Made by a program: the position numbers and the translations under genes
NCBI GenBank assembly: GCA_022774705.1
Contig: JALFLM010000028.1
Span: forward strand, 1,066-65,065
From: Lachnospiraceae bacterium
Lineage (GTDB): Bacteria; Bacillota; Clostridia; Lachnospirales; Lachnospiraceae
Direction of reading: 5' to 3'
Length of the DNA: 64,000 bases
Part shown: piece after piece, positions 40,342 through 53,418 of the stretch
How the letters are laid out: each line of letters opens with the position of its first letter
Position numbering within the stretch: position 1 is the first letter of the stretch
Notes under the pieces: generated by a model
The model's database searches: none
What the model saw: only the letters and a program-made list of their open reading frames with translations
Told to the model about the DNA's origin: nothing

Positions 40342-41931
40342 TTACCAGCGTCCGAATTCTGCCAGTTTCAGATCAGGATTCCTTTCTTCCACCATACCCA
40401 CGCTCCATCTGTTGGCAAAGAGAAGAAGAGGATTACCCTTCAGATCCTTGATCCGCTTCATGTCGGAAGTTCCCTGAATCTTATTCACATCAATATCTTC
40501 ATTCTCAATCCAGCGGATATACTCATAGGGAAGCTGCTCCAGACGCACTTCCACATTGTATTCGGTTTTCAGACGGTGCACCAGCACATCAAACTGCAGC
40601 ACGCCGACTACACCTACTATGATCTCTTCCATACCTGTGTTGAATTCCTGGAAAATCTGAATGGCACCTTCCTGCGCAATCTGACTGACGCCTTTTATGA
40701 ACTGCTTTCTCTTCATGGTATCCGTCTGACGCACTCTCGCAAAATGCTCCGGAGCAAACGTGGGGATTCCCTCAAAAGCAAACCGGGTTCCGGGCTGGCA
40801 GATTGTATCACCGATATTAAAGATACCCGGATCAAACACACCGATAATGTCACCCGCATATGCTTCTTCCACGATCTTCCTTTCCTGAGCCATCATCTGC
40901 TGAGGCTGGGAGAGCTTGATCTTTTTCTCGCCCTGAGTATGGTAAACCTCCATACCTGCTTCAAATTTACCGGAGCAGATCCGCATAAATGCAATACGGT
41001 CTCTATGAGCCTTGTTCATATTCGCCTGAATCTTGAACACAAAAGCTGAAAACTGATTCTCAACCGGATCGATCAGGCCAATATCGGAATTTCTTGCCAT
41101 CGGCGCATAAGTCATGGCGAGGAAATGCTTCAGGAAAGTTTCTACACCGAAGTTCGTCAGTGCGGAGCCGAAAAATACCGGTGACAGTTCCCCCCGGCTG
41201 ACCATCTCCTGATCAAATTCCTGCCCTGCGCCATCCAGCAGCTCAATATCTTCCATCAGCTGATCATAATACTGGAATCCGATCACATCTTCCAGATTGG
41301 GATCATCTATGGAAATATTCTCCACAGCTACCTCTTTCATACCACTGTCCGCTGCCGTAAATTTGGAGATTACCCTTGTGTTTCTGTCATAGGTTCCCTT
41401 AAAGTTTTTACCGCAGCCGATAGGCCAGTTTACAGGACATGTAGCAATCCCAAGAACATTCTCAATGTCATCCATCAGCTCAAAAGGATCATTGGCTTCC
41501 CGGTCCAGCTTATTGATAAATGTAAAAATCGGTATATGCCGCATCACACATACTTTGAAAAGTTTAATTGTCTGCGGTTCCACACCTTTTGATGCGTCAA
41601 TTACCATAACTGCAGAATCTGCAGCCATCAATGTCCTGTACGTATCTTCTGAGAAATCCTGATGCCCCGGAGTATCCAGAATATTGATACAGTATCCATC
41701 GTATTCAAACTGCATTACAGAAGAAGTAACAGAAATACCTCTTTCTTTTTCAATTTCCATCCAGTCTGAGACTGCATGTCTTGCCGTTTTTCTTCCCTTA
41801 ACAGACCCGGCCAGATTAATCGCCCCGCCGTAAAGCAGCAGTTTTTCCGTTAATGTGGTTTTACCGGCATCCGGATGCGAAATAATGGCAAAAGTCCGTC
41901 TTCTCTCTATTTCCTGTTTCAGGTCAGACAC
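40342..41931 (-). CDS. prfC: Peptide chain release factor 3 (GTPase)
   Basis: 529-aa ORF with a GTG start. RRTFAIISHPDAGKTTLTEKLL, DTPGHQDF and NKLD G-motifs are present. Confidence 0.95.
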   Translation of the reverse strand: MSDLKQEIERRRTFAIISHPDAGKTTLTEKLLLYGGAINLAGSVKGRKTARHAVSDWMEIEKERGISVTSSVMQFEYDGYCINILDTPGHQDFSEDTYRTLMAADSAVMVIDASKGVEPQTIKLFKVCVMRHIPIFTFINKLDREANDPFELMDDIENVLGIATCPVNWPIGCGKNFKGTYDRNTRVISKFTAADSGMKEVAVENISIDDPNLEDVIGFQYYDQLMEDIELLDGAGQEFDQEMVSRGELSPVFFGSALTNFGVETFLKHFLAMTYAPMARNSDIGLIDPVENQFSAFVFKIQANMNKAHRDRIAFMRICSGKFEAGMEVYHTQGEKKIKLSQPQQMMAQERKIVEEAYAGDIIGVFDPGIFNIGDTICQPGTRFAFEGIPTFAPEHFARVRQTDTMKRKQFIKGVSQIAQEGAIQIFQEFNTGMEEIIVGVVGVLQFDVLVHRLKTEYNVEVRLEQLPYEYIRWIENEDIDVNKIQGTSDMKRIKDLKGNPLLLFANRWSVGMVEERNPDLKLAEFGRW

Positions 41932-42001
41932 TTTTGTTTTCCTTTCAGTCTTTTAATATTGTAGATTCTATTTCAAAATTACACACATCAAGTTATTATA
42001 C

Positions 42002-42817
42002 TTAAAAAGTGCTTCCTTGACAACAGCTTTTGGAAATTTTGCGAAAATCCCGTTTCCATCCTCTGAAAATCTCTTCGCTGTTATCTCCGTAATCCTTCCC
42101 GTCCATCTCCTGCTCGATTTTTTCTTTTTTCCTGTTGAAGTTTTCCTGCCACTTTCGCATGGTAATCACATGAATTTCGGAAAAAATACCAGGATCACAG
42201 ACCTGTACCGGGCTGATGCAGGACAACTCAAACAGTTCCTGCAGAACAGACTCCTGATGAAGATATTCATACGCTCTGGACAACGCATCTCCGGCTGCCT
42301 TCCATTCAAACGCAGCCATATAAATCTTCCCCAGGCTGTAATAAATCATCCCTGTTTCTTCATCGCTTTTTCCGATTCGCTTCTGCCCGTTATCATGAAG
42401 CAGCTGAAGATATATCTCCGCAGCTTTGTCATATTCTTTATGCTTCAGGAAAAGATCAGCCTGAAGTTTCTTTTTCCCTGAATCCGGGAGCTTCTGAAAA
42501 ACGGATACCTTTTCTTTCAGAAACTTCCGTTCTGTTTCATCCATATCTCCTGTGGCACAGGCCAGCTCTCCGGCCAGAACCACAGAGCTGACCTGAGATA
42601 CCCTGGAAACAACCAGTTCCGCCAGATCACGCCTGTTCAGGTCTTCGCGAAGGAAACGCATCAATTCCGTATCAAAAAACGCGTCATCAATCAGATACAG
42701 GAAATGCTGCAGAAAATAACTCAGTTCTTCCAGAGAATAGAGGTGAATTCCGGCAGCAGCCACATACAAAGGATTTTTTACTTCTCCGGTATCCAGGCAC
42801 CTGACAATTCTTCCCAT
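42002..42817 (-). CDS. Hypothetical cytoplasmic protein with a TPR-like helical segment
   Basis: 271-aa ORF, 18 bp downstream of the 423-aa ORF. ...KHKEYDKAAEIYLQLLHDN...GMIYYSLGKIYMAAFEWKAAGDALSRAYEY resembles TPR helices. No catalytic motif recognised. Confidence 0.7.
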   Translation of the reverse strand: MGRIVRCLDTGEVKNPLYVAAAGIHLYSLEELSYFLQHFLYLIDDAFFDTELMRFLREDLNRRDLAELVVSRVSQVSSVVLAGELACATGDMDETERKFLKEKVSVFQKLPDSGKKKLQADLFLKHKEYDKAAEIYLQLLHDNGQKRIGKSDEETGMIYYSLGKIYMAAFEWKAAGDALSRAYEYLHQESVLQELFELSCISPVQVCDPGIFSEIHVITMRKWQENFNRKKEKIEQEMDGKDYGDNSEEIFRGWKRDFRKISKSCCQGSTF

Positions 42818-42835
42818 ACAAGATCCCTCCTGACT

Positions 42836-44107
42836 TTAAACATTGTAACTCTGCTCTATTATCTGTCCGGTTGACGGATAAAACTCTCCAAAGCCCAGAT
42901 CCTCCACCCGTACTATCATGGTGTTAACCCGGGGGAAAGCAATTGAAAGCCTGATTTTCGTTCTGGATCTTCCATCACTCATGAATGCTGAAAGATCCAG
43001 CGGCAGTTTATAGCTTTCCTGCGCTCCGGTATTCCTGACAAACAGATTCAGACAGTTCTGCCCGATCAGATTAAGATCAGTCGATGTTCTGGCTTCATAA
43101 CAGCTCGTACCTGCCCGTGCAAGAACCAGCTGTTCATTCTCCCCCTTTTCATCAACAAATATACTAACCGTTACGCTGATTCTTCCATCACAGATACAGC
43201 GATACGGAAAATTCCTGTATTCATCCGCAATATGATATGCCGCAAAAGCGGCACCCATACCATATAAGGCCTCTGCCTGATAAACTTTTCTGTTTTTCTG
43301 TGAAGAAATACTCAAAATAAATTGTCTGGCCCAGGAAATATTATGAAATCCCTCGCCGCAGAGCATAACGCTGCTGACAATCTTTCCGGACATTTTTTTC
43401 TGTGCCAGCCCCGCAAACCAGCGGTCTGCCGCAATTCTCTCCTCTCCTTCCTTCGCGGTCATCTCCATGGAAGGGGCACCGTCGATCCTCTCCACATGTG
43501 CCTGGGCAGTAACAGGACGCAGACCTTTAATCTGACTGACCTCATAACAGAACAGCCCTTTTCGGCTGTAATCAAACAACAGACTGACATTGCTCCATAT
43601 CTCGCGTTTCTGGCTCATCAGATAATACATAAAAGATTCCTGACGATTCAGAACATGAATGTTCAGAGGATCCATTCCCAGCCTGCTGCAGATCCGGCTG
43701 ATTTTCTCTGATTCCCGTATTCCCGCCTTTTCCAGACAGATTGCGAGACTTCCGACCTGATTCATACCGGAGCGTTTCACAGCCTCGTTAAGAACATAAT
43801 TCATATACTCCTGCAGCATATCTTCATCAGTATAACATTCTCCATCAATTTTCAGATACTGACCACTTTGAAACAGAGATACCAGACGGTTCAGGACAAC
43901 GCAGCCTTCCTTTCCCCTGGATTCCCAGGCTTTTTCGCCTGCATACCATCGATGCTCATTCTCATCAAAGCACAGACAGGCAGGAATTTCATATATTCCG
44001 GCCTGATTTTCCAGTTTCTGAACTGTCCTGCTTTCAGGATTAAACCATGCCATGCTGCATCCGGCATCATCCAGTTCAATTCCCAGATATAAACTTTCCA
44101 TCCTCAT
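42836..44107 (-). CDS. Hypothetical protein with a degenerate Hsp70/actin-fold ATPase-like N-domain and a beta-rich C-domain
   Basis: 423-aa ORF. LGIELDDAGCS (aa 8-18), HVLNRQESFMYY (151-162), LLFDYSRKGLF (176-186) and VMLCGEGF (247-254) line up with the Hsp70 phosphate-1, connect, phosphate-2 and adenosine motifs, but the Gly-rich loops are substituted. Confidence 0.7.
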   Translation of the reverse strand: MRMESLYLGIELDDAGCSMAWFNPESRTVQKLENQAGIYEIPACLCFDENEHRWYAGEKAWESRGKEGCVVLNRLVSLFQSGQYLKIDGECYTDEDMLQEYMNYVLNEAVKRSGMNQVGSLAICLEKAGIRESEKISRICSRLGMDPLNIHVLNRQESFMYYLMSQKREIWSNVSLLFDYSRKGLFCYEVSQIKGLRPVTAQAHVERIDGAPSMEMTAKEGEERIAADRWFAGLAQKKMSGKIVSSVMLCGEGFHNISWARQFILSISSQKNRKVYQAEALYGMGAAFAAYHIADEYRNFPYRCICDGRISVTVSIFVDEKGENEQLVLARAGTSCYEARTSTDLNLIGQNCLNLFVRNTGAQESYKLPLDLSAFMSDGRSRTKIRLSIAFPRVNTMIVRVEDLGFGEFYPSTGQIIEQSYNV

Positions 44108-44177
44108 ATCAACTTTCTATTTTTATTAAACAATATAAACGACGTTTTGCCGTAATGCAGAACATCTCTGAAATCTG

Positions 44178-47100
44178 TTATTTTCCTACAGAGTCCACCA
44201 GTTTCAGCATTTTTTCATAGTTTTTCATTTTCTCTTCAACCGGTTTCCCGTTTTTCAGGCAAAGGGCTATTTCCTGCAGGATGCCATAACGATCTGTCCG
44301 TTCTGCGGATTCTGTCTCTGCACATTCTGCCTGACGATCATAATTCTTCATTGCATAATCCCGACTCTCTGTATATTGCCACTCCGTTGTCTGTTCGCCG
44401 CAATGAAAACGGTAACAGACTTCCTCTCCGGAAAATATTACAATCCCGGCAGAATACAGACAACTGTACACCTGCCAAACCTTCACCCGATATTTCGACT
44501 CCGGCTCGCCGTCCACATAATATTCCAGCCACAAACTTTTCTGTTCTTTTTTTACTCTGTCACGAAGATCTTCATGGAATGCACCTGCCGGAGAAAGGTT
44601 TACAGAAAGAACCGGTATTGATAACAGCCCGTATTGAGCAGCCTCTTTTTGAACAAAATCCAGATTCATCCCCAGTGCAAGCATATTCTGACACATTTCT
44701 TTCAAAATAATATGCTCAATCTCATGGTTCAGGCCGGATTCCTGATCATATTTCAGACAGGCCAGCTGGCACGGAACAGTGAGAGCGGAGAGATTCCCGG
44801 AATGAATTACCATGCTCTGCAGCGCTGCCATGACATCTGCTTCCATATCACTGCTTTCGCATAAATATTCATGGCAGATTCTGTTGATCGCTGCCCGAAC
44901 CAGAAGTTCAGCCTGCTCCAGTTCCACAACTGAGACAAATACCTCCTGAAGCATATCCATGTCCGTCTCTTCTTCCATCAACAGGTTCAGAAGCAAACTC
45001 AGCTTTAATTCATCACAATTCAGATTTCTGTCCCGACAGACTGTGTATAAACTTTGAATCAGTTCTTTTTTCCCCTGACAATTCCGCGCCAGATACCTGA
45101 GCAGAAAATCATCAAGAATTCCTTTCTGAAACAGATATGTCAGAAGATTCATCAATTCAATACTCGTTTCATTCTCCGGATACCGCGCAAGTGCCTCTGC
45201 CAGTTCCAGAAGCAGACCATCATCCACAGATTCCCAGGATAAACCGGATAAAAAGCCGGCCGCTTCTGTGTAGTACTTTCTATGAATCAGAATTTCAGTA
45301 AAAGCTGACATCTGTTCCCCGTTCATCATATCAGAGTATCTGCAGACCGCCTGAATATCTGAATGTTCAAAACGTCTTCCACTTTTATCTTCCATGATAA
45401 AATCAATCAGTTTTTTTCTAAAATTATCATCCAGTGATTCATCTTTCAGATACTGCATACACAGTCGGAAATCACAGGAACCGAAATCTCCCTGAAGAAT
45501 CCGGTCATGTGTTTTCATCAGAAGCAGGGTTTCATCGTCCGGGCAGAGTTTTTCACAGCATTTCATCAATTGTTCATCCTGCATAAGGGGACAGACTTTC
45601 AGATTCATTCCCCCGATTCTTTTTCCCTGACGGTCCTGCAGATGAAATCTTCCATTTCCCCCGGGCACGCACAAACAGGTTTTTCCATTAATAAATACAC
45701 TTGTCTGAGGTTCCTTATAAATACCGCTTTCAAAAACAACCTGGTATCCGTCCGGAACCTGTGCCTTAACCTGCACCAGATACAGCATGGGAATCAGAGC
45801 CTGAGCCAGTTCACTGTCCAGAATATCAGGTGTAATGATTTCCCCTGCAAGAAGAGCCAGATCCTCACTCCAGCAGCTTCTCATAATCTGATTTTTTACA
45901 AAATCCTGCATACCACGAGTATAGTGAGTATAAATCCGGTCATCTTCCGTATAGAACTGCAGCACATTCAGCAAAAGCTTTGTATAAATCTGAGGATTCA
46001 CCAGTTCATCCAGTGAAAAATAGAGCAGAACTTCACGGTTTACAGGTTTCTCATAACCGGAAGGCAAAGTATACATATAGTAATCGAAAAGTCTTGCTAT
46101 TTTCATGCCTGCTTCAACAGCCTGCTCATAAAATGCAAATGCACGGCTGCTTTTCCTGTCAGATCGGATCATCACAGTACACAATGCTGACAGCATCTCT
46201 CTGGAAGGATACTGTTCATACATTTTTTCATACATCCTGCATATATATGCCGTATACAATTCAGGTCTGCACAAAGATACACTTTCTGCGGTTTTTCCTG
46301 ATATCATATGTTTATTAATACCGGTATACAGGCAGTGGCCTGTCCATTCGTCAATTCCTGCATCCAGTATCTTTTCCATCCGTGGATCATCCAGAAGGGA
46401 AGCGCCATAAAAGAACAGATACGGGCTGGTATTGCCGTTATGATATAGACGCTGCAGTTCTTCCCACAGATTCACCGGTTCCCTGTCCGCAAGCTGCAGG
46501 CATCCGCAGCACAGAAGCAAAACCATATCCGGATCTCCGGGTTCTTTATCCAGCGCCATCTGTATGTAGCTTCCAAGCTGCTGTTTTCTGACTGCTGCCT
46601 CCCGCATCTGATGCTGCGTCCGGGCAATTCCATACTGCAGGTTCAAAAGCATGCAATACTCAATACAATGCTGCTTTCTGGCAGAAATAATCACATTACG
46701 GATCTTGCTTTCAAGTTTTGCTGCATATGCAGCATTGCCGTTTTCAAGAGCAGCCATCGCTTCATATAGTTTATACCGGATACAATCCGGTCTCAAACGG
46801 ACAAGGGTCTGAACTCCGGCAGTAATCATCCCCAGCAGTTCTGTCTGCTTTTCCTGCATCTTCTCCTGCCTGAAAAGAAGCAGCCTTTCCAGATTCAGCT
46901 TTGTCAAACGGATTTTTTCTTCTTTTTCTCTGCGGATATTCCGGGGAAGTGTCCTCCGGCGGGGTATCTGTCCGCTTTCACCTGAAACTTTTTCAGTACT
47001 ATTTTCTTCGGAACAATGCTTTTCCTCCGGCACTTTGAAATGCAGCGGAATCACATATTCACCACCGTTATAACGCAGAAGTATCCCATCGGTACTCCAC

Positions 47101-47378
47101 TCTTTTCTGTTGAAAACCCGTCCCGGTATCAGTTCATAATGCAGTGTGGTATTCCCCCGAAAAATGTTTTCCTTCATGATTAAAGCCGGGTGAAGCGACT
47201 GTACCGTGCCAACCGGTTCCACATCGTTTTTGCTGTAAACAGCAATGGACCCGCTTCGCTTTTCGGTTCCCTCCCAGATAATTTCACCCTTATCCACGCT
47301 GATTACCGCCTGTGCATATACATGTTCCGGTTCACCTGCCGCCATCTGTTCCAGCACTGTTTTAAAAGCAACCGTCAT
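44178..47378 (-). CDS. Large hypothetical protein (1066 aa): beta-rich N- and C-terminal domains around a long helical-repeat core
   Basis: Long uninterrupted ORF. Its ATG overlaps the rarA stop (ATGA at 47375-47378). No Walker, TM or signal motifs seen. Confidence 0.75.
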   Translation of the reverse strand: MTVAFKTVLEQMAAGEPEHVYAQAVISVDKGEIIWEGTEKRSGSIAVYSKNDVEPVGTVQSLHPALIMKENIFRGNTTLHYELIPGRVFNRKEWSTDGILLRYNGGEYVIPLHFKVPEEKHCSEENSTEKVSGESGQIPRRRTLPRNIRREKEEKIRLTKLNLERLLLFRQEKMQEKQTELLGMITAGVQTLVRLRPDCIRYKLYEAMAALENGNAAYAAKLESKIRNVIISARKQHCIEYCMLLNLQYGIARTQHQMREAAVRKQQLGSYIQMALDKEPGDPDMVLLLCCGCLQLADREPVNLWEELQRLYHNGNTSPYLFFYGASLLDDPRMEKILDAGIDEWTGHCLYTGINKHMISGKTAESVSLCRPELYTAYICRMYEKMYEQYPSREMLSALCTVMIRSDRKSSRAFAFYEQAVEAGMKIARLFDYYMYTLPSGYEKPVNREVLLYFSLDELVNPQIYTKLLLNVLQFYTEDDRIYTHYTRGMQDFVKNQIMRSCWSEDLALLAGEIITPDILDSELAQALIPMLYLVQVKAQVPDGYQVVFESGIYKEPQTSVFINGKTCLCVPGGNGRFHLQDRQGKRIGGMNLKVCPLMQDEQLMKCCEKLCPDDETLLLMKTHDRILQGDFGSCDFRLCMQYLKDESLDDNFRKKLIDFIMEDKSGRRFEHSDIQAVCRYSDMMNGEQMSAFTEILIHRKYYTEAAGFLSGLSWESVDDGLLLELAEALARYPENETSIELMNLLTYLFQKGILDDFLLRYLARNCQGKKELIQSLYTVCRDRNLNCDELKLSLLLNLLMEEETDMDMLQEVFVSVVELEQAELLVRAAINRICHEYLCESSDMEADVMAALQSMVIHSGNLSALTVPCQLACLKYDQESGLNHEIEHIILKEMCQNMLALGMNLDFVQKEAAQYGLLSIPVLSVNLSPAGAFHEDLRDRVKKEQKSLWLEYYVDGEPESKYRVKVWQVYSCLYSAGIVIFSGEEVCYRFHCGEQTTEWQYTESRDYAMKNYDRQAECAETESAERTDRYGILQEIALCLKNGKPVEEKMKNYEKMLKLVDSVGK

Positions 47379-48712
47379 GATTCATCCTCTGTATTTCTGT
47401 TTCTTAAATGTTCTATACGCTCTGCCATCTTCTTTTCATAGCCAAGTGTACCCGGATGGTAAAAAGCGATACCTGCCAGCTCATCAGGCAGATACTGCTG
47501 TTCTACATAATGCTCCGGATAAGCATGTGCATACCGATAGGAAATGCCATGCCCCAGCTGCGCTGCTCCACTGTAATGTGAATCCTGAAGATGCGGTGGA
47601 ATTGTCGCAATCTTTCTATTCCGCACATCCTCAAGAGCCGCATCGACTGCCATATAGGAACTGTTGCTTTTGGGTGCACAGGCAATATACACCACCGCCT
47701 GAGCCAGTACGATTCTGGCCTCAGGCATACCCAGACGTTCCACGGCCTGAGCTGCCGCCACGGCCAGAACCAGTGCCTGAGGATCGGCATTGCCCACGTC
47801 TTCAGATGCACAGATCATAATTCTGCGGGCAATGAAGCGGATATCTTCTCCCGCCTGAAGCATTCTGGCAAGATAATATACTGCCGCATCCGGATCCGAT
47901 CCCCGCATACTCTTGATAAAAGCCGAAATCGTATCATAATGATTATCACCTTTTTTATCGTAACGAACCGCTTTCCTCTGAATACATTCCTCTGCAACCT
48001 GCAGAGTAATATGAATCTGATGATTTTCATCCTGAGGTGTTGTCAGAACCGCCAGTTCAATCGCATTGAGTGCCATCCTGGCATCTCCCCCGGAAACTTC
48101 CGCAAGGAAACGGCAGGCATCCTCATCCAGAACAGGTGAAAAACTTCCCATCCCTTTTTTCTCATCTGTTACCGCCCGTTTCAACAACACCATCACATCC
48201 TCCGGCGACAGCGGCTTCAGTTCAAAAATCATCGACCTTGACAGAAGTGCTCCATTCACCTCAAAATACGGATTTTCCGTAGTCGCACCGATCAGAATAA
48301 TGGTACCATCTTCCACAAAGGGAAGCAGATAATCCTGCTGCCCTTTATTAAAACGGTGAATCTCATCAATAAACAGAATTGTTTTCCTGCCATACATTCC
48401 CGAAAGTTCTTTAGCCTGGCTTACCACTTCCTCCATATCTTTTTTCCCTGCCGATGTGGCGTTAATCTGCTGAAAACTTGAACTGGTCGTATTGGCGATT
48501 ACTCTGGCCAGTGTTGTTTTCCCTGTTCCCGGAGGGCCGTAAAAAATCAGAGAACTGATCTTATCTGCCTGAATCGCTCTGTAAAGCAGTTTATCAGGTG
48601 CCAGTATATGTTTCTGACCCACTACCTCAGAAAGTGTCTGCGGTCTTAAACGCGAAGCAAGCGGCGCTTCGCTCTCCTTCTTCTTTTCATTTATATATTC
48701 AAATAAATCCAT
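47375..48712 (-). CDS. rarA: Replication-associated recombination protein A (MgsA/RarA AAA+ ATPase)
   Basis: LASRLRPQTLSEVVGQKH, the FYGPPGTGKTTLARVIA Walker A and the FIDEIHRFNK Walker B are present, with a C-terminal MgsA domain (DNHYDTISAFIKSMRGSDPDAA). The ATG at 48712 has an AGGGAG RBS; the track start is 48796. Confidence 0.9.
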   Translation of the reverse strand: MDLFEYINEKKKESEAPLASRLRPQTLSEVVGQKHILAPDKLLYRAIQADKISSLIFYGPPGTGKTTLARVIANTTSSSFQQINATSAGKKDMEEVVSQAKELSGMYGRKTILFIDEIHRFNKGQQDYLLPFVEDGTIILIGATTENPYFEVNGALLSRSMIFELKPLSPEDVMVLLKRAVTDEKKGMGSFSPVLDEDACRFLAEVSGGDARMALNAIELAVLTTPQDENHQIHITLQVAEECIQRKAVRYDKKGDNHYDTISAFIKSMRGSDPDAAVYYLARMLQAGEDIRFIARRIMICASEDVGNADPQALVLAVAAAQAVERLGMPEARIVLAQAVVYIACAPKSNSSYMAVDAALEDVRNRKIATIPPHLQDSHYSGAAQLGHGISYRYAHAYPEHYVEQQYLPDELAGIAFYHPGTLGYEKKMAERIEHLRNRNTEDES

Positions 48713-48832
48713 GGTTCTCCCTGACTGTAATAAAACTGAGTAACTGTTCAGAGCCACCCTCGAAAACACTGTACGTTTTCTCGGTGTGGCGTACACTGGA
48801 AATCAGTCTTTATTATAGCAGTGGCACCCGGA

Positions 48833-49573
48833 TTATTCAATCATTATCTCATCCACTGTACAGAAACGATACCCCTTTTCAAGAAAGATATCCGCAACCT
48901 TCAGCGCCGCTTCCACCGATGTTTCATACACATCATGGAGAAGGATAATGGATCCGTCTTCTGTCTGCTGAAGAATACTTCTGACTACAGCATCTGTATT
49001 CTGCACCTTCCAATCGTACGGATCCACATCCCACAATACCGCTTCAAGGCTGGTCTCTTGCTGCAGTTTTTCGTTCCAGCATCCAAACGGCGGCCTGATA
49101 TAGCCGGTTCTGAACCCCGACGCCTGATAAATTGCTTCCTGGGTTTTCCTGATCTCTTCCAGAGCACCGGCTTCACTGCATGTTGTCAGCTGTACATGGG
49201 AATATGTGTGATTACCCACCTGATTTCCTTCATCCACCATACGCTGAACCAGCTCCGGATATTCCTCTGCACTTTTTCCTATGACAAAGAACGTTGCCCG
49301 GATTCCTCTTGCTTTCAGACCATCCAGAAGCTTTTCCGTCCAGACAGGATGAGGTCCGTCATCAAACGTCAAAGCAATCTCCATATCTCCTGATTCCATG
49401 GAATATGGCTGATCCGGCTGTACCTGCTCCTGTTCCCATGCTTTCACTATATTCTGCATCGGATCAGATAAACCCGGCAATATCCATTGTGATACAGCTG
49501 TCAGCATGATCATCAAAAGGAAAACAACTGCCGGAATCCATCCTGAAAACGATACTTTTCCACGCTTTTTCAA
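48833..49573 (-). CDS. Polysaccharide deacetylase (NodB homology domain), membrane-anchored
   Basis: 246-aa ORF with a TTG start and GAAGGA RBS. It has an N-terminal TM segment. ALTFDDGPHP, ATFFVIG and GNHTYSHV are NodB motifs. Confidence 0.85.
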   Translation of the reverse strand: MKKRGKVSFSGWIPAVVFLLMIMLTAVSQWILPGLSDPMQNIVKAWEQEQVQPDQPYSMESGDMEIALTFDDGPHPVWTEKLLDGLKARGIRATFFVIGKSAEEYPELVQRMVDEGNQVGNHTYSHVQLTTCSEAGALEEIRKTQEAIYQASGFRTGYIRPPFGCWNEKLQQETSLEAVLWDVDPYDWKVQNTDAVVRSILQQTEDGSIILLHDVYETSVEAALKVADIFLEKGYRFCTVDEIMIE

Positions 49574-49663: not shown

Positions 49664-50053
49664 TTAACAAAACATGTGCTGCTTTTCCACAATTACTGCA
49701 TATTTGCGGCAGCTGACCTGAGCTTTTTTTCCTCCGGGCAGTGAAAACCAGGATGTGATTTCAATATCCATAACTCCTTTTTTTAAACTTACCTCATGAA
49801 GTACCACATCAAATTCCGCATCCGCCCCGAGTATCAGAAACAGTTCGCCCAGAAAATCCGCATACAGTTCCTGATCTGTGGTAACAGAATAGTTTTTCTT
49901 TATTACCGCAGCTTCCAGACTGTGGCGCATGGACATCTCCATGGCCATCTCCAGTTCCTCATGATGCAGCTGTTTGGTCTCCATACTGTATATGCACTGA
50001 ATCCCGCCTGTCAGAATACAGATCAGAATAAAAGCGGCCGTAATCTGTCTCAT
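49664..50053 (-). CDS. Hypothetical protein with an N-terminal hydrophobic anchor (last gene of the Tad-like operon)
   Basis: 129-aa ORF. ATGA overlap with the upstream 424-aa gene. The N-terminus is MRQITAAFILICILTGGIQCI. Confidence 0.55.
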   Translation of the reverse strand: MRQITAAFILICILTGGIQCIYSMETKQLHHEELEMAMEMSMRHSLEAAVIKKNYSVTTDQELYADFLGELFLILGADAEFDVVLHEVSLKKGVMDIEITSWFSLPGGKKAQVSCRKYAVIVEKQHMFC

Positions 50054-51324
50054 GTCAACCCTTTCCTGATAATTTCCCGGTTAAGCCTTGCACCGGCAAA
50101 TTCACACCTCTCAATCAGTTCCCGGATCAGCAGGATCCGTGTACGCCCATATCTTATGCTGCGAATCGTTTTGGAATCTCCGGCACCTGTTTTCGGTGTC
50201 CGGAATTCCACCCGGTATTTTTTCACTTTCCAGACAGCATACAACACCGTATCCTTCTCAGGAATAAAGCTTTTTCCCGGTGCCAGAATACTCAGTTTCC
50301 CAATTGTATTTATGTCTGTATCAGCAGGCAGAATCTTTACTTCTTTCCGGCTCCAGCCCAGAAACACATACTGATCGCTGTTCAGTTCCGGAAGTGTATA
50401 CTTTTGTGGGGACCAGAGTGCATACAGATGAATTATCCCGTTATGTTGATCTGTAAGATTTTTCACTTTTGCACAGTCCCCGTACTTTTTTTTGCCGTCT
50501 GCACTCAGACTCCATCCTCTGAAACTGCTTTTCAGCATAGTTGAAACAGGTTTCAGCTTTTTTCCTTTCCATGCGGTGTCTCCCGGTTCCAGTTTAACCG
50601 TGATCACCCTTGAAAAACCGCAGGAGATCAGTTTTCCGGCTTTTCCGTAAGTAAATGCCTGTTTTTTCATCGATCCGCCAGCTGCAGGATCATTTTTATG
50701 ATACGATACATACCACCTGGATGGCTGAAACACCTTAAGCTGAATTCCGAAATAATTTTTCAGGGCTTTTCTTGTGCTCCCGGACCAGTCGGCTGCCTTC
50801 AGAATCTGATCCGGATTCTGATATACATTGCCGCGAAAGACAACCTCTCCGTTATCCAGTTCTGTAACTGTTCCCTGATCTGTTCCATTCAGAACCAGGC
50901 AAAGATAAAAATCAACCTGATAACGGATCCGCCGATTGTACATCAGGCTGCTGAAATCCGTACCGGGATATCTGCTCCGAAACCGTTCAAATAACCGGTC
51001 ATAGGAAACCTGATACAAACTGTAATAGTATCCATCTTTCTTTACATAGCTGATTCTTCTGCAGCTTCCCGTACCGGAACCATCATCCAGCGCAATTCCG
51101 GTAACATACCGCTTTCCTCCGTCCATTTCCATTGCAAATTTCTGACCGGCAACGCCGTAGCGAATCCCTTTCGGGTCTCCCGCTTTTCCCCTGGATGAAT
51201 AATAAAACGCTCCGTCAGAAAAGACAATCTGTCCGGTTCCATAAGTATTATAAAATGCAGCCGCATTGCTGAAAGTATGCGCTGCTGCAAAAGCAGAAGT
51301 ATGCGGCAGCCACAGGAAAAACAA
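50050..51324 (-). CDS. Secreted protein with Listeria-Bacteroides (Flg_new / InlB B-repeat-like) repeats
   Basis: 424-aa ORF with a signal-like N-terminus (...LWLPHTSAFA-AAH). The C-terminal half has repeats with the F.GW...LYA.W pattern (FRGWSLSADGKK...IHLYALW; YVFLGWSRKE...TVLYAVW). The start codon is uncertain (TTG). Confidence 0.6.
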   Translation of the reverse strand: MFFLWLPHTSAFAAAHTFSNAAAFYNTYGTGQIVFSDGAFYYSSRGKAGDPKGIRYGVAGQKFAMEMDGGKRYVTGIALDDGSGTGSCRRISYVKKDGYYYSLYQVSYDRLFERFRSRYPGTDFSSLMYNRRIRYQVDFYLCLVLNGTDQGTVTELDNGEVVFRGNVYQNPDQILKAADWSGSTRKALKNYFGIQLKVFQPSRWYVSYHKNDPAAGGSMKKQAFTYGKAGKLISCGFSRVITVKLEPGDTAWKGKKLKPVSTMLKSSFRGWSLSADGKKKYGDCAKVKNLTDQHNGIIHLYALWSPQKYTLPELNSDQYVFLGWSRKEVKILPADTDINTIGKLSILAPGKSFIPEKDTVLYAVWKVKKYRVEFRTPKTGAGDSKTIRSIRYGRTRILLIRELIERCEFAGARLNREIIRKGLT

Positions 51325-51353
51325 TCCCGCTATCCATAAGACAGCCCCTCTTC

Positions 51354-51695
51354 CTATCTTGCGTATCCCTGAATCACCCCTTCCCTTTTACTGCCTGCAT
51401 TCTTCCACGTATCAGGGACCCTGAGTTCATAATAGAGACTAAGTAACAGGCAGGTGTCTCCCTGCGTCCCATCAATTTGCCGGCATTCCAGACGATATCC
51501 CTGTTTCGCCGCCTCCTCTTTGCACTGCCGGATCACCGATTCATCCATCTGGCTGCATTCAATCCGATCCGACAGTTCATGGAAACAGGTCCTGGCCTGT
51601 AAAATATACAGATTGGAGGAAATCATCTGGGCAAGCAGCACACATCCTGCACACAGCAAAAGTGTCTGAATCATTGTTTCAATCCCGATTTTCAT
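51354..51695 (-). CDS. Hypothetical protein with an N-terminal hydrophobic segment (pseudopilin-like topology)
   Basis: 113-aa ORF. The N-terminus is MKIGIETMIQTLLLCAGCVLLAQMI. GGAGAAAAG RBS. Confidence 0.5.
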   Translation of the reverse strand: MKIGIETMIQTLLLCAGCVLLAQMISSNLYILQARTCFHELSDRIECSQMDESVIRQCKEEAAKQGYRLECRQIDGTQGDTCLLLSLYYELRVPDTWKNAGSKREGVIQGYAR

Positions 51696-51713
51696 ACTCT
51701 TTTCTCCAAAACC

Positions 51714-51977
51714 TCATACTGAATCTGCCGGACATTCAGAGGCCTGCAGATTGGCCGCGCTTCTTCCGTGAATCCCGTCATTATACGGCAGCTTCATACC
51801 GTTTTCTCTTTCCTGAACATACATATAACGGACATATTCCCGGTTCAGGGACATCTCCACCAGCCTCTCAGCCATACAGATACTGCCGGCTGCCAGTATC
51901 AGGCTTGCTGCCAGCAGCGCCAGTACTGTCATCCCCCATGATCTTGCCATCATACTCATTCTTTCCCTTGTACTCAT
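51714..51977 (-). CDS. Hypothetical protein with an N-terminal hydrophobic segment (pseudopilin-like topology)
   Basis: 87-aa ORF. ...RSWGMTVLALLAASLILAAGSI. ATGA overlap with the upstream mini-ORF. Confidence 0.5.
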   Translation of the reverse strand: MSTRERMSMMARSWGMTVLALLAASLILAAGSICMAERLVEMSLNREYVRYMYVQERENGMKLPYNDGIHGRSAANLQASECPADSV

Positions 51978-52081
51978 AATGCTCCTGCAAAACTGTAAAA
52001 TGCCTTCATTACATAAAACAGAACTCTGCCCACTGCAATCAGAATCAGGCAGCCTCCCATTTCTTCAATCATAGCTTTCAT
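51974..52081 (-). CDS. 35-aa hydrophobic mini-protein, pilin-like N-terminus
   Basis: MKAMIEEMGGCLILIAVGRVLFYVMKAFYSFAGAL. Its ATG overlaps the platform-gene stop (ATGA at 52078-52081) and its stop overlaps the next ATG. It is the shorter version of the 70-aa track ORF. Confidence 0.45.
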   Translation of the reverse strand: MKAMIEEMGGCLILIAVGRVLFYVMKAFYSFAGAL

Positions 52082-53418
52082 AAACGATACATCTCCCCCA
52101 AAAATGAAAACAGCATCAGGCTCAGATTCACCACCAGCATAATGACCGAAACCAGCATGGGAACCGCCGCCAGCATCCCCATCCATGACAACACAGAATC
52201 TGTTTTCAGTTCAAATGCAGTCTCTGTAAGGTGACGGTTCTGATCCAGCATGGCATAAATCTGCTCCTTAATTTCTTCCTTTCCCACATCATTGACAGCA
52301 TAAAGCTGAAGCATAACCGCATGAATCTCCGGAAGATCAAATTCCTTCAGAAAATCCAGATAGGGCTGAATGGATACAGGATCTTCCTGCTGTTTTCTAA
52401 TCATCCGATACAGAGGCCGTACCAGGACTTCCGGTGCACCATCCAGAGAATGGGCAATTGCAGTCTGGACATTCTCCGTCTGAAGCCGCAGTATCATGTC
52501 AAACATCCATTCAGGAAAATGCATGCTGATCTCCTGTTCCAGTCTGCGCACAGTGCTCCAGTACCGTATACCATGCACAGGAGAATCCAGCTGTCTGTAC
52601 AGCTTTTCAAGCTGCCTGCTCTCACGGCTGTTCTCTTCCATCCCTGTTTTCTCCAGACCGGCCCCTGCGGACATGGTAGAAAAAACAATATACAGAACCT
52701 GAAAAATCACCAGACCTGTGCCTGTACAGAGCTGATATGCCGTAATATCCGCAACATCTGCTGCAGCCGGCATCATGCGCACAACAGCCAGACAGATCAG
52801 GCAGGACAGGATAACCGCCAGTACCAGGCGGCTCTGAATACTCTTTTTTCGTCCTGCAAACGTCTTCTGATTCTTCTTCCAGTCTCTCAGCTGATTCAGC
52901 AGAAGTTCCAGAGCCAGTACACAGTCTCCTCCCTGCTCCTCAACACGAATCAGAAATGTATGCAGTACATGCATAAGATGATGTCCGTATTCCGTCTCGA
53001 TATGGATAAAAGCCCGCTGAAACAGATCATCCTCCACAAAATCACCTTCCAGCTTCTCCAGTGCTTCCGTCACATATCTTTTCAGATTGCCTTCCGTGAT
53101 GCGGGAAACATCACGAAGTGCTGCCGGGATCTTGTGATGCCTGCGAAAACTGTATATCAGCTGTTCCATATAAAAAGAACTTTCTTCCAGCTTTCTTCTC
53201 TGATCTTCTTCCTTTTTCTTCTGGCGAATCAGTATCGGAATCATGCATGCCGATACACTGCCTGCTGCAATCAGCACAGGCAGCTTCAAATTGCACAGAT
53301 AGGCAGTCACCAGAAAAAAGAGCGGCATTCTCCCCATCAAAACGATGCTGTTTTTCACCCTGTTCCTGTTAATATTCACTTTACACTGCCTCGTAAAACG
53401 GATCCGAAATTCCTGCAA
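52078..53418 (-). CDS. Fused TadB/TadC-like (T2SS-F family) inner-membrane platform protein
   Basis: 446-aa ORF with two helical T2SSF-like repeats, each followed by TM segments. The first contains the LIRVEEQGGDCVLALELLLNQLR signature. The start is uncertain (TTG at 53418 overlaps the ATPase gene by 38 nt). Confidence 0.65.
   Translation of the reverse strand: MQEFRIRFTRQCKVNINRNRVKNSIVLMGRMPLFFLVTAYLCNLKLPVLIAAGSVSACMIPILIRQKKKEEDQRRKLEESSFYMEQLIYSFRRHHKIPAALRDVSRITEGNLKRYVTEALEKLEGDFVEDDLFQRAFIHIETEYGHHLMHVLHTFLIRVEEQGGDCVLALELLLNQLRDWKKNQKTFAGRKKSIQSRLVLAVILSCLICLAVVRMMPAAADVADITAYQLCTGTGLVIFQVLYIVFSTMSAGAGLEKTGMEENSRESRQLEKLYRQLDSPVHGIRYWSTVRRLEQEISMHFPEWMFDMILRLQTENVQTAIAHSLDGAPEVLVRPLYRMIRKQQEDPVSIQPYLDFLKEFDLPEIHAVMLQLYAVNDVGKEEIKEQIYAMLDQNRHLTETAFELKTDSVLSWMGMLAAVPMLVSVIMLVVNLSLMLFSFLGEMYRL

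Follow-up and report, generated by a model that had tools for sequence, protein, structure and literature searches.

Three adjacent genes in a 64-kb window of a Lachnospiraceae bacterium (GenBank assembly GCA_022774705.1, contig JALFLM010000028.1, positions 1,066 to 65,065; "the window" denotes this whole stretch of 64,000 nucleotides) belong to a module whose gene order recurs in every representative locus that we compared. On the minus strand, downstream of rarA, they encode a giant scaffold of the DUF5717 family (DUF, domain of unknown function) with a predicted solenoid fold (X1066, 44178-47378), a lid-less protein of the DUF5716 family with a predicted Hsp70 fold (X423, 42836-44107), and a putative adaptor with tetratricopeptide repeats (TPRs) that lies outside every Pfam family (X271, 42002-42817). 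We see about an even chance that the trio forms an autonomous cytoplasmic complex of three subunits, acting as a chaperone-like scaffold, and that its link to rarA is a local operon fusion and not proof of a partnership. An earlier note, made from the sequence of the window alone, had proposed a cytoplasmic assembly functionally tied to the replication-fork ATPase RarA. Its module of scaffold, Hsp70-fold subunit and adaptor proved to be conserved (30/30 loci), while the tie to RarA, whose gene adjoins the trio in 8/23 lineages, could not be established.

Conservation of the three-gene module

The comparison is based on 105 loci obtained from homologue searches, contig look-ups, a genome scan and a metagenome scan, with metagenomes adding 80 of them; the scan of genome contigs found six close relatives, all metagenome-assembled genomes labelled "Lachnospiraceae bacterium". 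Neighbouring genes were counted in 30 representative loci, and lineages were defined as DUF5716 clusters at 50% identity, of which 23 were informative. Wherever DNA was available, hidden Markov models of the components placed DUF5717 directly upstream and an X271-like gene directly downstream of DUF5716. The order DUF5717, DUF5716, X271-like on one strand was found in all 30 representative loci (one fusion counted), so that the count of co-occurrence suggested in the earlier note came out complete, and the same adjacency held in essentially all of the 105 loci with enough DNA, down to X423 identities of 21-25%. A DUF5716 profile run against 1.84 billion representative proteins matched 1,610 clusters at 50% identity (E <= 1e-3), 631 at E <= 1e-30, and the named sources of the trio are all Lachnospiraceae.

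The trio diverges faster than its flanks. Across loci L001-L006 (L-numbers designate loci), identities range from 51-80% in X1066, 56-83% in X423 and 48-86% in X271, compared with 85-96% in RarA and 95-98% in PrfC. As RarA identity drops from 96% to 66%, that of X423 declines smoothly from 83% to about 25%, which argues for vertical inheritance. Judged by gene order and divergence, DUF5717-DUF5716-X271 thus appears to be an autonomous, vertically inherited module. The literature searched (by DUF names, Pfam accessions, and Hsp70-like plus TPR plus Lachnospiraceae) held no relevant paper discussing DUF5716 or DUF5717, and the Hsp70 relationship, the obligatory TPR partner, the fusions, the fourth gene and the ancient synteny presented below were not found described there.

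X423 and the Hsp70 fold

The earlier note tentatively gave such Clostridial proteins DUF-type labels only, and this is indeed the case. X423 is a clear member of DUF5716_C (PF18980; 6.7e-68, 229.2 bits vs a cut-off of 34.7), which all 26 aligned homologues match, and X1066 of DUF5717_N (PF18984; 5.8e-78, 263.1 bits) and DUF5717 (PF18983; 2e-27, 96.7 bits; cut-offs 25); these labels come with no assigned function. The homologues of X423 are mostly 421 amino acids (aa) long, starting at the second ATG (44101).

The AlphaFold2 (AF2) model of X423, built with 26 homologues, has a predicted local distance difference test score (pLDDT) of 92 and a predicted TM-score (pTM) of 0.89. Its 50 best Foldseek matches in the PDB are all members of the Hsp70 family, namely DnaK, BiP, Hsc70, Hsp110/Sse1 and Ssz1 (E 4e-17 to 2.5e-13, query TM-score (TMq) 0.44-0.59, 9-13% identity), which bears out the degenerate Hsp70/actin fold suspected in the earlier note. 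The two-domain layout of Hsp70 (DnaK, BiP, Hsc70; PF00012) is recognisable in the model, with a reduced, actin-like nucleotide-binding domain (NBD, residues ~1-300) followed by a beta-sandwich resembling the substrate-binding domain (SBD, 302-423). The helical lid (SBD-alpha) is missing, as residues 302-423 are all-beta but for one helix of four residues and the protein ends there, and the NBD is ~80 residues shorter than that of Hsp70. At the sequence level the likeness is faint: X423 is only 10-13% identical to Hsp70 and has no Pfam match to PF00012, which a single one of the 26 homologues reaches at E = 0.037; its profile meets DnaK in the PDB only at E >= 0.12, and phmmer or profile searches of the PDB with X423 and X1066 returned nothing useful. 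A match to a SIL1-ubiquitin fusion in the PDB was dismissed as noise, the aligned part being ubiquitin.

The active site appears to be remodelled. An hhalign alignment with DnaK (probability 23.8%, DnaK sequence entered by hand) sets YLGIELDDAGC on IIGIDLGTTNS and N73 on K70. Going by this low-probability alignment and by motif inspection, the phosphate loops of X423 read ELDDAGC and FDYSRKGLFCYE, compared with DLGTT (phosphate-1) and DLGGGTFD (phosphate-2) in DnaK. Among 150 representatives of the DUF5716 family, neither the GTT nor the GGGT loop is conserved, and most have D or E where DnaK has K70; retained are the positions equivalent to DnaK D8, E171 and D194, together with a G-x-G-F turn, corresponding to the "adenosine" turn (G-x-G) of Hsp70, and a K-G-A motif. 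The equivalents of D194 and G-x-G are ~72 residues apart in X423 vs roughly 145 in DnaK, a spacing from which we infer that most of subdomain IIB is absent. As a separate observation, the most conserved motif of the family, D-x-G-F-G-E-[FLI]-[FY]-P-[AS]-[ST]-G, lies in the last beta hairpin (X423 residues 403-414), with its D, G, F and G each present in 142-149 of the 150 representatives; a comparison by eye places it on the "...DK.[ST]GK..." hairpin of Hsp70 SBD-beta, with GFGEFYP inserted.

Hsp70 proper thus does not include X423, which is not a member by sequence and is without the phosphate loops, Lys70, the lid and operon partners of the J-protein or nucleotide-exchange-factor type. No J-domain, DnaJ or GrpE was found in the unit of the window, in the partner proteins scanned or in the Pfam tables of neighbouring genes; such partners may be encoded elsewhere in the genome. 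We therefore regard X423 as a lid-less, remodelled Hsp70-fold protein that probably has no canonical ATPase cycle. A protein of this kind is Ssz1, the atypical Hsp70 of the yeast ribosome-associated complex. Its SBD is truncated, lacks a lid and is filled by a segment of a second protein, with which Ssz1, itself not cycling ATP, forms a stable structural pair. Ssz1 is among the best structural matches of X423 (7x3k_B at rank 2, also 6sr6 and 5mb9), and the mode of action that we propose is modelled on it by analogy. However, Ssz1 pairs with the J-protein Zuotin on ribosomes, whereas X423 would be partnered by a TPR protein and by a solenoid of 1,066 aa, neither with a J-domain. In structure and function the likeness goes no further than analogy, a separate origin from bacterial Hsp70 being likely.

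X271 and fusions of its homologues to DUF5716

As a single sequence, X271 gives only sub-threshold TPR matches in Pfam. The profile of its 12-member family, on the other hand, matches consensus TPR proteins in the PDB at 1.8e-16 and 1.9e-14 over residues ~115-190, and by this profile the TPR-like helices seen in the earlier note are real TPR motifs. The N-terminal domain (~1-110) is conserved (C7, E31, L32) and matches nothing, and the C-terminal helical part is variable. With TPR co-chaperones such as Hop/Sti1, CHIP, Tah1 and Sec72, X271 shares the repeats and a genetic lock to an Hsp70-fold protein. It differs from them in its additional N-terminal domain. Moreover, these co-chaperones bind an EEVD-type tail via a carboxylate clamp, while X423 has no free EEVD tail and ends in ...EQSYNV within a predicted beta strand. 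The X271 profile matches Sti1, CHIP, Tah1 and Sec72 weakly (E 1e-3 to 2e-2), no better than generic TPRs.

In some lineages the two genes are one. DUF5716 proteins of 747 aa in L016-18 are X271-like in their C-terminal half (residues 466-641, BLASTP with X271 2e-12), and fusions of 708-745 aa with a full-length X271 domain make up 7 of the best 150 representatives at 50% identity. In L007, L010, L019 and L022, the stop and start codons of the DUF5716 and X271-like genes overlap. From the sequences we infer that X271 would bind X423 directly.

X1066, a predicted giant solenoid

The AF2 model of X1066 (pLDDT 85, pTM 0.53) begins with a beta-sandwich (residues ~24-114) and a disordered linker (119-143), continues with a first helical solenoid (146-532), a small beta domain (534-597) and a second helical solenoid (602-915), and closes with a third beta domain (923-1004), a disordered loop (1011-1027) and a C-terminal helical hairpin (1030-1065). 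This agrees with the beta-rich ends and long helical core described in the earlier note and adds another beta domain in mid-protein. Foldseek found generic TPR/HAT scaffolds only (Ctr9, Ski3, IFT-A, Naa15; E 5e-6 to 1e-3, TM <0.2), and a sequence profile had no match in the PDB. According to the model, X1066 would be a TPR-like solenoid scaffold of ~1,000 aa with three beta domains and no recognisable catalytic module. Likewise, none of the three proteins matches an ATPase, nuclease, helicase or methylase family in Pfam or NCBIfam, and none has a hydrophobic segment of transmembrane strength, just as the earlier note had it.

Two of these structural matches could suggest a role in translation, namely that the trio is a chaperone platform on which a non-cycling Hsp70, carried by a helical-repeat scaffold, acts on nascent chains, akin to the eukaryotic ribosome-associated complex (Ssz1-Zuo1) or to NatA (Naa15). 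Lid-less Ssz1 is prominent among the matches of X423 and Naa15 appears among those of X1066; in addition, prfC and efp are neighbours in the window, and valS accompanies the trio elsewhere (11/30 loci). However, the matches of X1066 reflect generic solenoid similarity, no J-domain or ribosome-binding domain was detected, and the linkage to translation genes is equally explained by housekeeping synteny. We consider this role quite unlikely.

Transcription in the window and linkage to rarA

The head-to-tail order on the minus strand of the window is deacetylase, rarA, X1066, X423, X271, prfC. The gene upstream of X1066 is a bona fide RarA (MgsA/RarA AAA+ ATPase) with the AAA+ module, AAA_assoc_2 and MgsA_C all present (Pfam MgsA_C 2.2e-74, AAA_assoc_2 5e-31, AAA 5e-19); it reaches 1.7e-190 against NCBIfam models of the PRK13341 type, under their curated cut-off. 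Its longest open reading frame (ORF) spans 47375-48796, but homologues align only from residue 20-29, and the start is therefore most likely ATG 48712 (MDLFEY...; probable gene 47375-48712), which is preceded by a GGGAGA Shine-Dalgarno sequence. The 28 extra residues from GTG 48796 are common to no homologue and their codons overlap the putative promoter region; this extension is an artefact of ORF calling.

The stop of rarA and the start of X1066 share a 4-nt ATGA overlap (...aatcATGAcgg..., 47375-47378), followed by gaps of 70 nt between X1066 and X423 (44108-44177) and 18 nt between X423 and X271 (42818-42835), all as the earlier note had read them. A consensus scan of the unit, with promoters called by consensus matching only, found promoter-like sites solely before rarA and before prfC. 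The first (TTGAAT-17-TG-TATAAT, 48812-48840, minus strand, 10/12 consensus matches, extended -10, sigma-A type) is the probable promoter of rarA-X1066-X423-X271. The second (TTGTCA-17-TATAAT, 41995-42023, minus strand, 11/12 matches) is probably the prfC promoter and the downstream boundary of the unit; this near-consensus sigma-70 site overlaps the final codons and stop of X271, and prfC (40342-41931), whose orthologue in L024 shows release factor 3 domains, appears to have its own promoter directly after the unit. The only candidate from the terminator scan was a weak hairpin of five base pairs (three G-C; 44153-44139) within the 70-nt gap, and we reject it as a terminator: its fold is no better than that of shuffled sequence (z = 0.16), and it lies in an insertion absent from the closest relatives. 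Thus, rarA and the trio very probably form one transcription unit in the window, as had been proposed.

Outside the window, this linkage is old and patchy. Of the 23 informative lineage clusters, 8 have rarA directly upstream of DUF5717, two more (L015, L031) have it at a distance of 4-6 kb, and 13 show no rarA within at least 5 kb; in L105 it is 2.3 kb from the trio. Such adjacency is far above chance. In a neighbour-joining tree of DUF5716 rooted at its midpoint, lineages with adjacent rarA occur on either side of the root, so that the adjacency is probably ancestral and was lost several times; a narrower reading, drawn from six close genomes plus some ten distant contigs, had confined the linkage to the clade of the window and was overturned by the metagenome loci. 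The junction itself is less uniform. The ATGA overlap is kept in L001-L004, L006 and L024 (L005 has a 2-nt gap), while other rarA junctions have a 0-nt gap (L050), a 15-nt gap (L048), a possible overlap (L067), an extended -10 motif in the gap (L052, L078) or a gap of ~170 nt (L025) or ~100 nt (L077). The translational coupling to rarA claimed in the earlier note is clear, as a stop/start overlap, solely in the clade of the window. In loci without rarA, an extended -10-like motif occurs 30-90 nt before DUF5717 in 11 of 20 cases vs 3.8 expected.

Along the lines of the earlier note, the trio could be an accessory complex acting with RarA at stalled or collapsed forks, maybe in loading, holding or remodelling RarA or its partners, with the operon ensuring stoichiometric co-production. 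In line with this, the ATGA overlap has been maintained through the clade of the window, and a linkage that reaches both sides of the tree has survived the divergence of X423 to ~25% identity. Yet most lineages do without rarA nearby and are enriched in promoter-like motifs before DUF5717, some of the rarA junctions contain a promoter-like site or a gap of 100-170 nt, and searches of the trio revealed no domain for DNA binding and no nuclease or helicase domain. Moreover, RarA is, as far as is known, present in almost all bacteria, whereas every named source of the trio belongs to the Lachnospiraceae. Other housekeeping genes are also linked to the trio about as often: in the 30-locus census, rarA was counted in 11, valS in 11 (downstream, on the same strand) and the polysaccharide deacetylase gene (pda) in 8, directly upstream of rarA in L052, L067, L077 and L105. 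The recurrence of valS and pda makes the link look like an old housekeeping order, pda-rarA-DUF5717-DUF5716-TPR-(fourth gene)-valS, and not like a specific partnership. RarA, although very probably co-transcribed with the trio in the window, is not part of the conserved module, and we consider the accessory complex unlikely.

A bolder variant, which we hold to be unlikely, is that a non-cycling Hsp70 clamp mounted on a TPR solenoid holds RarA or a fork client, or hands it over, under replication stress, with RarA as the ancestral partner. The trio would then be a hitherto unrecognised bacterial chaperone-like machine, a counterpart, peculiar to Lachnospiraceae, of replisome remodelling assisted by chaperones, and a membrane-tethered form with four genes would be a variant of it.

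The fourth gene and the envelope

A fourth gene (G4) follows the trio in 13/30 representative loci (e.g. L016:13905-15089, L011:2657-3868, L021:13589-14761 and L023:13691-14854). Its products are 387-417 aa long, 24-55% identical among members and without a Pfam match; they have two central hydrophobic segments, whose flanks look coiled-coil by sequence, not by formal prediction. G4 is absent from the window and from the whole rarA-coupled clade.

This gene might indicate an envelope-associated morphogenetic scaffold, anchored by G4 and serving wall remodelling, division or a sporulation-related assembly. The recurrent deacetylase (8/30 loci) would fit, being membrane-anchored by an N-terminal hydrophobic segment (Pfam Polysacc_deac_1 7.4e-37; 48833-49573, minus strand, in the window, where it is a conserved neighbour upstream of rarA and not a member of the trio), and other contexts contain PG_binding_1, choline-binding/Hydrolase_2, GH25 and CotH genes. 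However, anchoring is not universal given the distribution of G4, and wall-related neighbours, given here as raw counts, are common in Firmicutes genomes. Furthermore, the promoter-like motifs upstream of DUF5717 are extended -10 elements of the vegetative sigma-A type and not recognisably of the sporulation type. A sporulation-specific promoter was rejected on this appearance, with no formal comparison with motifs of sporulation sigma factors. An envelope role is in our view improbable.

Mobile elements, defence and other neighbours

Large repeat proteins beside a diverged NTPase-fold protein, all evolving fast, bear a superficial likeness to sensor/effector modules, and one could imagine an anti-phage or conflict system in which an Hsp70-like NTPase works with repeat-protein sensors. 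X1066, X423 and X271 have no match in PADLOC-DB, though, no relatives were found on plasmids or in IMG/VR, and Pfam and Foldseek revealed no effector domain. Five X423 matches in a phage collection come from faecal virome records entitled "UNVERIFIED: Bacteriophage sp." (MT835486.1, MT835719, MT835988, MT837634 and MT837190). The only one of the five examined, MT835486.1 (L105, 1-19146), carries pda, rarA, DUF5717, DUF5716, the TPR gene, G4 and valS, a gene content that identifies it as bacterial chromosomal DNA in a phage collection. On these searches and this one record, we rejected an association of the trio with phages or plasmids. Together with the fixed syntenic housekeeping location and a divergence that tracks RarA, this makes a defence function highly improbable.

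Several other genes were noticed around the trio. In the distant lineage L015, three genes separate rarA from DUF5717 (L015:4255-7833) and appear to have been inserted at the ancestral junction of rarA and the trio; they encode an extracytoplasmic function (ECF)-type sigma factor, a family-less protein of 349 aa and an AAA-ATPase_like/PDDEXK_9 protein. Upstream of DUF5717, a divergent gene for a DUF4364 protein (~175-190 aa) occurs in 5/30 loci, all without rarA (L007:5675-6199, L010:5699-6223, L034, L041 and L053), and a class I/II aminotransferase recurs in 8/30. The 30-locus census yielded no further recurrent partner gene. In the window, four co-oriented ORFs (129, 424, 113 and 446 aa; 49664-53418, minus strand) upstream of the deacetylase are syntenic in L001-L006 and L024. 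The 446-aa product has a weak, sub-threshold match to T2SSF (type II secretion or type IV pilus platform) and the 424-aa product a sub-threshold match to Flg_new repeats, while those of 129 and 113 aa fall outside Pfam families; the cluster may be a divergent pilus or competence cluster.

A proposed chaperone-like complex and its significance

The reading that we prefer, an autonomous complex, can be outlined as follows. X1066, X423 and X271 would be subunits of one vertically inherited cytoplasmic complex of Lachnospiraceae. X423 would be its stable, peptide-clamping structural subunit in the manner of Ssz1, most likely without an ATP/J-protein/GrpE cycle of the DnaK type, because the lid, most of IIB, the phosphate loops and the catalytic lysine seem to be lost. 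X271 would serve as a TPR adaptor bound directly to X423, forming one polypeptide with it in some lineages, and X1066 as a recruiting platform for clients or partners. In the ~40% of lineages with G4, its product, with two putative membrane helices and a coiled coil, probably tethers the complex to the membrane. The whole might function as a constitutively expressed chaperone-like assembly or holding platform. In the window, the trio would have lost its own promoter and be read from that of rarA, translation of X1066 being coupled to that of rarA; we take this for a local operon fusion inside the ancient order pda-rarA-trio-(G4)-valS.

Several points weigh against this proposal. The role of the trio is deduced from folds and gene order only, and the pTM of the X1066 model makes its inter-domain arrangement uncertain. 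The residue mapping of the X423 active site comes from the low-probability hhalign alignment and motif inspection, and the retained acidic residues that coordinate Mg-ATP (the D8, E171 and D194 equivalents) make nucleotide binding or slow hydrolysis possible. Finally, rarA adjacency in 8/23 deep lineages is more than typical gene-order drift and could reflect a functional link.

Lachnospiraceae rank with the most abundant gut bacteria of humans and animals. Their trio costs a cell ~1,760 codons and is apparently expressed constitutively, and all that labels it are two DUFs. The proposed complex predicts a stable heterotrimer, independence from J-proteins and GrpE, and a peptide segment held in the beta-sandwich of X423; if true, it would be a bacterial addition to the small class of structural, non-cycling Hsp70s represented by Ssz1. 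Should the less likely link to RarA or a fork client be true instead, two large DUF families would receive a first function, and a new class would be added to the bacterial relatives of Hsp70. Lineages with and without linkage of the trio to rarA offer a natural experiment on a partnership with RarA.

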